Virus record (IMG/VR): IMGVR_UViG_2537562192_000007
Direction: 5' to 3' (one strand)
DNA from: a virus
Lineage: Duplodnaviria; Heunggongvirae; Uroviricota; Caudoviricetes
DNA length: 7,493 nt
Shown: in pieces, positions 1 to 3,000 of the stretch
Layout of the letters: every line of letters starts with the position of its first letter
How positions within the stretch are numbered: the stretch's first letter is position 1
Position numbers: made by a program

Positions 1-3000
1 GTACGTACCCTTCCTGCTGCGCCGGTACGATACTGCCAATCCTGGCCTCTTTTATCGTTTTTTCCCCGGTTGAATCAGGCATGCCAATACGCTGTTGTAG
101 TTCCGGGGCAAACACGCCGGAAAGCACATCGAGATTTTCCGGGGTATTCAGCGAAGCAATCGCCCTGTCCGGCTTATCATCAAAGATTTTCTGCAGGTTG
201 TTCACGGCCTGACCCGCTTTCGCAGCATAGCCTACCGTTGACATCATCTTAAGCGGATTGGCGTCCGATAATTTACCGAACAGATGAGAAGCCGCATCAT
301 GGTCACCCGCATCAATCGCTTTTCCCAGCGCCGCCATCACAGGCTGATCGCGCGCCAGCATATCGTTATACTCAAGCCGTCGCTGGTTGTATTTCTGCAA
401 CTGGAGTCGTTGCTGTTCCATCCCCAGCGACGCATTCCGGTAATTCTGGTTGGCGTTAAACTCCCTTTCCTGCAGTGTGTAATTGCGGTCATCAACTTTG
501 GCTCTGTAATCAAAGTTCCGCTGATCAACGTCTTTATTATGTTCAAACTGAGACTGCGCAAATTCAAAATCGCGCTCGTTATTTTTCTGTTGCTGAGCAA
601 GCTGTGCTTCTCGCAAACCAAGCTCCTTACGACGGGTCATTGCCTGGTCAACAGTGCTGAATCCGGCAAGTAACCCCTGTGCAAATCCGCTCATTCACCA
701 CTCCTTAAAACAAAGCGCCTGCAATGCCGCCAATTACTGCACCAGCAACAGCGCCGACGGCTGTCCCCACTACCGGTACTGCTGAACCAACAGTCGCCCC
801 GATAGTGGCCCCCGTACCAATGCCCGTACTGATATTCTGTTTTTTCTGAGCTTTCTGTTGAGCAGCCAGTTGTTTATTTGATGCCTCAATCTCTGTACGT
901 CGTCTGTCTGCGTCACTTATTCCCTGTAATGCCTCACGCCGCGACTGATTTGCAATATCCAGTAAACCGTATCCCATATTGCCCCCTTACGCTGCCACCA
1001 GTTGTCCGCCAACACTCAGTTTCTGTCTTGCCGGTGCAGAAGCCCCCGTCAGAATATTCATCTGGCGATCCTGTTCGGCTTCACGGATACCATTTTTCGC
1101 ACCTGCTATTGCCAGGGCATTACGTAACCCCAGCGTATTACTGTCGGGATTATCCGGGTGGCTTACCCCGTATCTCGCCATCTGGTTATCCTGCGCCATC
1201 TGCGCTGTACGGAGACTGGAAGTGGCAAGGCCTCCCACCCGTGCAAGCTGTGGATTCATCAGACTGTTGTTCTCCCCAAGGTCAGCCAGCCTTGCTACAC
1301 GGGGTAAATATCTGGTGCGCCAGTCGTCGTATTGCTGGCGGGTCAGCGCTGCGGATGTCTGCCAGTCCCCCTGAGGGCGGGCTGCTCCGGTATAACCGTA
1401 TCTCGCAAGTGTTTCGTATTTACCGTACTCCATAATCACAGTCTCCAGTTCTGAGCCTGATGCTGAATGGCATTAGCGCCAGTGCCAGGTGTTTTAGCAC
1501 CGCCACTTCCTCCGCTACCGCCAGCCTTATGCATCACATATGCACCTGCCGCACCCAGACCAGCGCCAACAAGAGAGGCTCGCCCCTGCTGTTTCGTAAA
1601 CGCCGCCTGTGCATCCGATTTAGCTTTTGCCAGACTGCTGTCTGCCAGAGAGTTAAAACTCTGTAACGCATCCGCCTTCTGACCAGAACCGAGAGCAGCA
1701 ACATCCTGTAGCCCGGCAACATACTTATCTGCCTGCGATACCTGCCCCCGTGTGGTTGTGTCAATCTGCCCGGTTACCTGATCACTCTGGTTCGCATTCA
1801 TTACCGCGTTAAAGCGACCACTGGACGGGTCAACACCGGACCGAGTGAGATTACTTGCCAGCTCCTTCCGCGCTTCGCCAAACTGTTTTTGATACCCCAG
1901 ATTTGTGGTGCCAGCAATATTGTCGTACTGCTGCTCACTGTTCAGGTCATCGACCTTTTCCATGAAGTTATCTTCAGCCGGGCGGAGGATATTTTTGTAA
2001 TCCTGCCACCCTTTCCAGGCCACTTCTTCCTGTGCTATTTGCGCTGCTGTTGGTTTTACTTTGGTATCACCACCACCTTTACTTCCACCCATAATGGCCC
2101 CCTGGATAATAAAAAACCCTGCCGGAGCAGGGTCAGAATGTGAATTGCAATGTTGGTTTAAACACGATGATGAAAACTGTGGCAGTCAGACCGCTATCCT
2201 GAACACCATGAAGCCATCCTCATCATCCGGCATTCGCTCAAAGCCCAGACGTTTTCCCAGCCGGATAAATCCCCGCCTTGCCGTATGAAATTCAGCCCAA
2301 CGTCCGCCAGCCAGACGGGTTAATGTCTTCACCTCCGGCAGATAACGCTCAACACTGTTACTCCCCGTACACACGCCCAGCAACACCAGAACATAAGGGA
2401 TACCATCAGCACTGAGCACAGAACGCAGCACCAGAAAGCCATCAGGTGCCTCAAAACAAAACGCCTGCTTTTTAAAGCAGGCGTCTTTAACTTCATTCAT
2501 AAATTCAGGGTTGCGGGAATTTCTCACCACACGCTGCATATACCGGAGAATTTTTTCACTCACACTCTCACCACAAAAAAGAACAATGTGACTGTGCTGT
2601 GTCTTCAGCGACAGAAGGATGACGGAGAACGCTCCCGATAACCAACACGGCTGGCGTTCTCCGCAAAAAATAAATTACCAGCCGACAGACATACCCGCAG
2701 CAACTACCTGAACCGTTCTGGTATCCCATGAAGCATTCAAACGTACAGCAGAATTTTCAGTGGTGCGGAAGTGCATACCTGCTGCGATAGCCTGCTCATC
2801 ACGGTAGTTACTTGCAGCCATACCAAAGGAGACGTTTTACCCTCAACAACAGGAATGGCAGTCATCGCCATTGCTCCTGCAATACCTGCATCTGCACGTT
2901 TACGGTTTTTCTCCACCTCATCACGTAACTGACGGAATTGCTGATTAGTACTACGCTCCAGGGTACTGACCCGGTTATCTGTGTAGGTATTAGCAGACTT

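Follow-up and report, generated by a model that had tools for sequence, protein, structure and literature searches.

A small glycine-zipper protein of Shiga-toxin phages, probably a free-standing form of the C-terminal module of P22 gp7

How do the short-tailed phages that disseminate Shiga-toxin (Stx) genes, and whose DNA delivery is almost uncharacterised, move their DNA into a host cell? A small gene in a 7,493-nucleotide stretch of viral DNA (IMG/VR record IMGVR_UViG_2537562192_000007; the whole stretch is called the window here) bears on this question; its 90-residue product, encoded at positions 705–977, ends in glycine-zipper repeats. A first-pass annotation had described this product as a tail-anchored mini-protein that could be a membrane-piercing virion component, a holin-like or toxic peptide, or an exclusion factor; it gave no strand, and we add that the open reading frame (ORF) lies on the minus strand. 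Sequence comparison indicates that, in a podovirus of the 933W/Sp5/phi24B type, the protein most likely represents the C-terminal module of the phage P22 ejection protein gp7 as a separate polypeptide. We think it fairly probable that it is a small ejected virion protein whose zipper arms enter the host outer-membrane pore, as an accessory to the products of ORF76, ORF77, ORF79 and ORF80 (gene numbers are those of phage Sp5).

Coding features and tail architecture of the 705–977 product

The gene and its parts are as follows.

705..977, minus strand: coding sequence of the target protein (90 residues plus TAA stop), PHROG 594, ortholog of Sp5 ORF78/ECs1240 and of phi24B gp49
834..977, minus strand: residues 1–48, a conserved MGYGLLD start followed by a charged, Q-rich helix
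783..833, minus strand: zipper arm 1, residues 49–65 (ISTGIGTGATIGATVGS), with G52, G56, G60 and G64
762..782, minus strand: proline turn between the arms, residues 66–72 (AVPVVGT)
708..761, minus strand: zipper arm 2, residues 73–90 (AVGAVAGAVIGGIAGALF), with G75, G79, G83 and G87
982..986, minus strand: ribosome-binding site GGGGG, abutting the ORF77 stop codon (987–989) and 5 nt before the target ATG

The frame opens with ATG, closes with TAA at 705–707, and is assigned to PHROG 594 with an E-value of 9e-42. The charged, helix-prone N-terminal half described in the first-pass annotation is borne out: residues 1–48 carry nine K/R and six D/E, and AlphaFold2 predicts residues 3–50 to be a single long helix with a predicted local distance difference test score (pLDDT) of 71–82, in a monomer model made from a 131-sequence alignment (pLDDT 64.7; predicted template-modelling score, pTM, 0.30). 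The 42 residues from 49 to 90 contain no charge. They hold two GxxxG runs, with glycines at 52/56/60/64 and at 71/75/79/83/87 and AVPVVGT in between; the glycine register shifts by 7 from G64 to G71, and the second run extends to the C-terminus (..GALF). This tail contains seven G(i)/G(i+4) pairs, a number that only 61 of 100,000 composition-preserving shuffles of it attain. The roughly 35-residue GxxxG stretch reported earlier thus keeps its periodicity and its reach to the last residue, but it is not continuous, being split into two arms by the proline turn.

The family is large and uniform. When 1.84 billion representative proteins were searched with its profile, at least 271 relatives were returned at E ≤ 1e-3, nearly all 71–95 residues long and aligned end to end, with the consensus M-x-YGL.., a polar helix, and then GAxxGAxxGxxxGGPxGAxIGAxxGxLAxxLF. 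Among 131 family members, 127 have a proline in the tail; the turn is GGPxG in most relatives, the length of the loop differs, and 59 members carry an acidic residue two to three positions before the C-terminus. The spacing between the conserved glycines that correspond to G60 and G79 of the window protein ranges from 11 to 26 residues and, taken modulo 4, is 0 in 59 members, 3 in 51 and another value in 20, so that no single register is fixed. The tail prolines, variable loop and free register argue for two short helices joined by a loop rather than one membrane-spanning helix. The tail therefore fits a two-arm hairpin with a variable proline loop, and "tail-anchored", which implies a single C-terminal transmembrane helix, was an imprecise term for it.

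Variation within the tail takes several forms. Three turn/arm alleles occur among Stx phages (GGPVGAVAG, GGLPGAAIG and GSAVPVVGTAVGAVAG), and in otherwise near-identical Stx phages (L003–L049, gene at 5001–5273) the target protein is 66–87% identical vs 93–99% for its neighbours. In some relatives the arms are separated by long low-complexity linkers rich in Ala, Gly and Thr (for example L079, 143 residues, 5001–5432, and P0154, 139 residues).

Across 20 DNA alleles, the ratio of nonsynonymous to synonymous polymorphism (pN/pS) is 0.10 over codons 1–48 and 0.28 over the last 18. The low ratio over codons 1–48, the ribosome-binding site and the detection of phi24B ortholog peptides in mass spectra together establish the target as a real late gene under purifying selection. 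A 41-residue antisense frame rich in Pro, Ala and Thr (724–849, plus strand) overlies the zipper-coding part of the gene; it is a side effect of the Gly/Ala codons that the coding strand carries there.

The gene is also closely tied to its neighbours. The tight spacing at the ORF77–target junction indicates an arrangement that would be permissive for translational coupling, and on the other side ORF79 starts 10 nt past the target stop codon, which is itself spanned by the GGAG of ORF79. No sigma-70-like promoter was found within window positions 1–4600, and hence none for the target itself. The order ORF75-76-77-78-79 is kept in 80 IMG/VR loci down to identities of 22–57%, and the ORF77 stop often overlaps the ORF78 start. 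Natural fusions join the target to either neighbour: a 200-residue protein combines PHROG 596 (ORF77) with PHROG 594 (P0175), and a 442-residue protein combines the N-terminal part of PHROG 594 with PHROG 601 (ORF79; P0070). The module is also fused to another N-terminal domain in a 315-residue protein (P0167), and P0042 is a further fusion; some of these four may be frameshift artefacts. Conserved synteny, tight junctions and fusions to both neighbours are the signature of a structural-module gene, and in this respect the target is a core gene of the module, unlike the morons lom, hok and the YadA-like gene.

Similarity of the family to the P22 ejection protein gp7

A Pfam scan of the 131 family members identified PF25688, "Bacteriophage P22 DNA ejection protein gp7", in 18 of them at E ≤ 1e-3 (best 1.7e-8). 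When ten members were scanned singly, two exceeded the 28-bit gathering score of this model (P0156, 31.7 bits; P0166, 28.7 bits), and in both of these residues 6–82 align to profile positions 157–229 of 230, indicating that the match takes in the polar helix and not the zipper alone. The target N-terminal half corresponds to the distal portion of gp7's second long helix (PF25688 positions ~157–190). Arm 2 of the target, which finishes in the family-wide ..LF-COOH, aligns with gp7 215–229; the P22 protein itself ends in ..SAIGGGASGAIAGAGLAKLIGSSTPWGAAIGGGIGLLGSLF, with ..GLLGSLF as its last letters.

Profile comparison leads to the same segment. Alignment of the family with gp7 in hhalign gives 93.5% probability and an E-value of 2.3e-7 over gp7 192–229, and the family profile scores the true C-terminal 80 residues of gp7 at 27.3 bits. 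None of 5,000 half-wise composition shuffles reaches this score (maximum 25.1 bits; 99.9th percentile 17.8).

The role of this part of gp7 is known from in situ cryo-electron microscopy (cryo-EM) of P22 (10.64898/2026.09.03.749273). Twelve gp7* molecules dock to the gp10 tail hub by a fingertip (residues 90–126) and assemble a 24-helix extracellular channel; each ends in a "V-shaped C terminus" with both arms located in the outer membrane, in which 24 helices of gp7 and 12 of gp20 form a 36-helix pore. The membrane-embedded residues of gp7 are I191, L204, L208, I218, I222, L224, L225 and F229 (10.64898/2026.09.03.749273). The segment of gp7 matched by the target family coincides with this V-shaped outer-membrane segment.

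The target has the same layout as the end of gp7: a polar helix, a two-arm hydrophobic hairpin, a proline turn and an ..LF end. Like gp7, and also like Sf6 gp11 and the gp7 proteins of HK620 and CUS-3, it combines a polar Q/N-rich helix with two Gly-rich hydrophobic arms; the proline turn is shared with gp7, and the family ends at the extreme C-terminus in ..SLF as gp7 does. Its gene, like that of gp7, lies amid those for podovirus internal proteins, just before genes for a protein of ~420–470 residues and a large one. Unlike gp7, the target is only 90 residues long and has neither the OpdA-cleaved leader nor the first long helix nor the hub-docking fingertip; no counterpart of these parts (gp7 residues ~21–126) was found in it. 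By this comparison, the target would work like the C-terminal third of gp7, yet it is not a full member of the gp7 family. The membrane-piercing virion component, one of the roles suggested for it in the first-pass annotation, is the one favoured by its resemblance to the gp7 hairpin and by its place in a conserved block of virion-internal proteins.

The missing front part of gp7 may have a counterpart elsewhere in this block. The N-terminus of the ORF76 family shows a weak similarity (hhalign, 68.7%, E 4.6e-5) to mature gp7 residues 22–99, just after the cleaved leader, and the ORF76 C-terminus carries a separate Gly-rich hydrophobic segment (LVGAGLGAAGAYVM). Because of this gp7-like start, its hydrophobic end and the reduced infectivity that follows its deletion in Sp5, ORF76 may be the protein that chiefly stands in for gp7 in Stx phages. 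Neither relatives of ORF76 nor the ORF77–78 fusion proteins match PF25688, and ORF77 shows no similarity to gp7; a hint of ORF76–ORF77 paralogy (9.8%, E 0.003) is weak and was not relied on.

Virion proteomics, deletion genetics and alternative roles

Two orthologous systems inform the question of whether the target is a virion protein. Purified phi24B virions contain plentiful gp47 (ORF80), gp48 (ORF79), gp50 (ORF77) and gp51 (ORF76), proteins that have no structure-derived copy number and are missing in the cryo-EM model of capsid and tail (10.64898/2026.04.10.717836). Normalising the phi24B spectral counts to the portal, an arithmetic of the present analysis, gives about 23, 37, 48 and 32 copies per virion for gp47, gp48, gp50 and gp51, respectively. 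The phi24B authors proposed gp47 as an ejection protein, and gp48 to gp51 are not discussed in the main text of their preprint (10.64898/2026.04.10.717836). The target shares its gene block with these four proteins, abundant in virions and invisible in the capsid/tail model. Its own ortholog, gp49 (phi24B genome 47581–47838), was detected in the virion preparation with 13 spectral counts overall, six of them from the batch digest (10.64898/2026.04.10.717836), which corresponds to ~6 copies per virion, or ~11 when just its 46-residue tryptic half is counted. The mass-spectrometry evidence for packaging of gp49 is suggestive rather than decisive.

In Sp5, late genes were deleted individually and in frame (Mondal et al. 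2016, PMC5155283). Nine proved essential (ORF60, 61, 62, 65, 67, 70, 71, 79 and 80), and deletion of ORF76 strongly reduced infectivity (PMC5155283). For the 83-residue ORF78/ECs1240, the primers of the single deletion keep only MGY..SLF (PMC5155283).

From these data and the P22 structure, a sequence of events can be proposed in which the number of copies packaged, their ejection, the membrane that they enter and a redundancy with ORF76 are what we infer. Some 6–12 copies of the target would be packaged alongside ORF76, ORF77, ORF79 and ORF80 and would be ejected after release of the needle. The N-terminal helix would then bundle with partner proteins, while both zipper arms would pack on neighbouring helices, insert into the host outer membrane, and complete or stabilise the conduit for DNA and protein. 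The target would be an accessory subunit, with ORF76 probably providing the main function.

Several observations weigh against this reading. Sp5 ORF78 is not in the essential set, and its deletion mutant gives plaques and lysogens on K-12 (PMC5155283); P22 gp7 is needed for infectivity, whereas the target ortholog is thus dispensable. A possible explanation is that ORF76, with its gp7-like N-terminus and its own hydrophobic C-terminus, covers the main function, so that the ORF78 deletion still plaques. The gp49 signal is small and comparable to those of Lom (~2 copies by the same arithmetic) and Bor (~4), which are probably membrane contaminants of the preparation, and the phi24B authors grouped gp49 with these two proteins, setting it aside as a contaminant because it is annotated "bacteriocin" (10.64898/2026.04.10.717836). 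On the side of sequence, Gly/Ala-rich composition inflates profile scores, as shown by shuffles that attain 25 bits, and the window protein itself gives no PF25688 match at E ≤ 0.1 and, as a whole protein, stays below 28 bits. Since the window allele, with its SAVPVVGT turn, lacks this match, the link to gp7 goes via the family. No similarity was detectable between ORF79 and P22 gp20 or between ORF77 and gp14, so the analogy with P22 depends on a single module together with gene order. Confidence in the tail of the AlphaFold2 monomer is low, and that the outer membrane, not the inner one, is entered would follow only from homology to gp7.

Several of these points would suit an intracellular assembly factor or chaperone that is neither ejected nor pore-forming. 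While ORF76, ORF79 and ORF80 are being packaged, it would shield or organise their hydrophobic segments, or else hold these at the producer cell's membrane. The viability of the Sp5 deletion and the low gp49 signal agree with such a role, and linkage and fusions to ORF77 and ORF79 suit partner binding as well as they suit a pore. We nevertheless consider it unlikely: the gp7 module to which the target is similar belongs to the structure of the ejected channel, gp49 is seen in purified virions at a level compatible with 6–12 copies, and the protein shows strong conservation of both termini over 271 clusters. Ejection followed by entry of the hairpin into the cytoplasmic membrane, in the manner of hydrophobic tape-measure segments and perhaps to anchor the giant ORF80, would account for the occurrence of the module inside tape-measure and tail-lysin PHROGs and for a non-significant match to a tape-measure chain in the PDB, and would leave the outer membrane to ORF76, which could serve it alone. 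This placement seems to us less probable still, given that gp7, the closest matched family of solved role, has its hairpin in the outer membrane and that the target arms, at just 17–18 residues, are short for the inner one.

Glycine zippers are found in pore-forming peptides, and this speaks for a prophage or lysis membrane peptide, be it a bacteriocin or microcin, a toxin, a holin-like factor or a superinfection-exclusion protein. So do the RefSeq name "bacteriocin" on the 83-residue alleles (the 90-residue allele is named "hypothetical protein"), weak Bacteriocin_IIc matches, and a match to a segment of the LeoB defence profile at 6.8e-9. All such matches are below the curated cut-off or confined to the zipper, and no bacteriocin, holin or defence model attains its threshold. 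The gene lacks a separate promoter and is tightly packed among late structural genes, and even in distant phages it keeps the same position within a core structural block, unlike morons; the double-glycine leader, exporter and immunity gene of a bacteriocin and the charged C-terminal tail of holins are absent. Nor did CMAT and two-dimensional polyacrylamide gel electrophoresis, which recovered phi24B genes expressed in the lysogen, yield the target, and the giant gene downstream of it in phi24B is induction-linked. The holin-like, toxic-peptide and exclusion-factor roles offered by the first-pass annotation are accordingly disfavoured, and we regard this whole class as very improbable.

The individual identities in this class, and others, were examined by profile and composition. 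For a class II bacteriocin (Bacteriocin_IIc, PF10439), the target scores 17.1 bits vs the 27.1-bit cut-off, and 11 of 131 family members match weakly; the target N-terminus (MGYGLLDIANQSRREALQG) has no GG cleavage motif, and its neighbours are all phage structural genes with no C39-peptidase ABC exporter or immunity gene. A holin is rejected on the hydrophobic ..GALF end, the 42 uncharged final residues, the lack of a holin PHROG match and the placement between virion-protein genes. Lysis genes of Stx phages adjoin stx. The PADLOC model LeoB (PDLC03842, dynamin-like) aligns its positions 402–472 of 568 to target residues 13–84. The alignment is limited to the helix and membrane hairpin, so what the two have in common is a motif for membrane insertion, and the target is no defence gene; 90 residues are too few for the GTPase domain of a ~570-residue dynamin-like protein.

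Glycine-zipper lipoprotein families deserve separate mention, as a search for such profiles had been proposed as a check. The family does match them at E ≤ 1e-3 (Gly-zipper_YMGG in 62 of 131 members, C19orf12 in 32, Gly-zipper_Omp in 19), while the window protein remains below both the YMGG and the Omp cut-offs. The Gly-zipper_Omp, Gly-zipper_YMGG and 2TM/Rick_17kDa_Anti lipoprotein domains share a GxxxG-repeat hairpin with the target. Identity with these lipoproteins (PF13488, PF13441, PF05433) was rejected: the target scores 19.5 vs 25 bits and 13.7 vs 28.9 bits, signal peptide and lipobox are absent, the N-terminal half is a charged helix, and the gene belongs to a phage structural module. 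No NCBIfam model attains its cut-off.

T7 gp14, the outer-membrane part of the T7 ejectosome, is placed in the same functional class as gp7 by a review (PMC8954989), and its family PF24072 is matched by one target-family member at 6e-4; unlike the target, it has 196 residues, and the window protein has no meaningful sequence relationship to it. A helix-plus-zipper module like that of the target lies inside tape-measure and tail-lysin PHROGs 1047, 10093, 23574 and 28412, proteins of 700–1,900 residues that exit the virion during infection; there the module is internal, not free-standing. The family profile gave non-significant matches (E 0.04–0.12) to PDB chains 7qog_M and 9ki1_g (crAss001 cargo protein gp45 and tape-measure), and PDB sequence searches with the target, ORF76 and ORF77 gave no significant match.

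An accessory role beside ORF76 could be taken one step further. The outer-membrane pore of Stx podoviruses might be a split gp7-derived set made up of ORF76, ORF77 and the free-standing ORF78 hairpin, with ORF78 as an exchangeable part that tunes the pore. ORF76 would contribute the hub-docking helix and one hydrophobic arm; the arm/turn alleles and occasional long linkers of ORF78 would adjust pore size or compatibility with the host envelope, possibly to allow transit of the 2,800-residue polyvalent protein. We regard this more elaborate scheme as rather doubtful.

Phage type, neighbouring genes and implications

The remaining features of the window are listed below.

1..694, minus strand: PHROG 601 (Sp5 ORF79, phi24B gp48), downstream neighbour of the target; N-terminal 231 codons, continuing beyond the window
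987..1439, minus strand: PHROG 596 (Sp5 ORF77, phi24B gp50), virion protein, upstream neighbour of the target
1436..2092, minus strand: PHROG 611 (Sp5 ORF76, phi24B gp51), virion protein
2186..2563, minus strand: PHROG 610 (Sp5 ORF75), which opens the conserved block of five genes
2737–3879, minus strand: YadA-like adhesin cargo gene, in the place of lom in other Stx phages
4221–4361, minus strand: hok (Hok/Gef-family toxin gene), from the RefSeq annotation of the matching locus
4563–6329, minus strand: tail-tip fibre gene
6326–7204, minus strand: truncated PHROG 511 "internal virion protein" gene, adjoining the IS1 end
7258–7493: IS1 end, with an InsA-like ORF at 7313–7486

The window shows, as its reverse strand, the late region of a lambdoid phage with a short tail and of Stx type, a member of the 933W/Sp5/phi24B group (Sepvirinae). 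Positions 1–2600 are similar to 186 phage records at 80–99.8% identity. Full-length ORF79/gp48 is an essential 421-residue virion protein, and in intact phages it is followed by the giant ORF80/gp47, a polyvalent protein of ~2,800 residues with LPD5/LPD38. Homology to E. coli prophages extends as far as position 7257, where the IS1 end abuts the PHROG 511 gene, which keeps only profile positions 565–859 of 862; the prophage in the source genome is therefore probably defective. The YadA-like coding sequence of NZ_CP027340 has 397 residues and an end equivalent to window position ~2676; the earlier stop at 2737 in the window suggests a frameshift in the C-terminal anchor. A hairpin resembling a terminator lies at 4189–4212 on the plus strand, opposite to hok.

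Conservation of the target gene extends to at least 186 sequenced phages of Stx type. The "bacteriocin" label on many of its RefSeq copies is misleading, and it led a 2026 virion proteomics study to discard the target ortholog. Our literature search returned no paper joining "glycine zipper" with "ejection protein" in phage, and a review of ejection proteins does not cover Stx phages (PMC8954989). Reading the target as a gp7 tail module offers a testable model of the Stx-phage ejectosome, and with it of DNA entry by phages of medical importance; in this model ORF76–80 would be equivalent to a gp7/gp20/gp16-like set with a giant polyvalent protein added. It would also mean that the outer-membrane hairpin of gp7 can occur as a separate gene product of ~80 residues in a large phage family.

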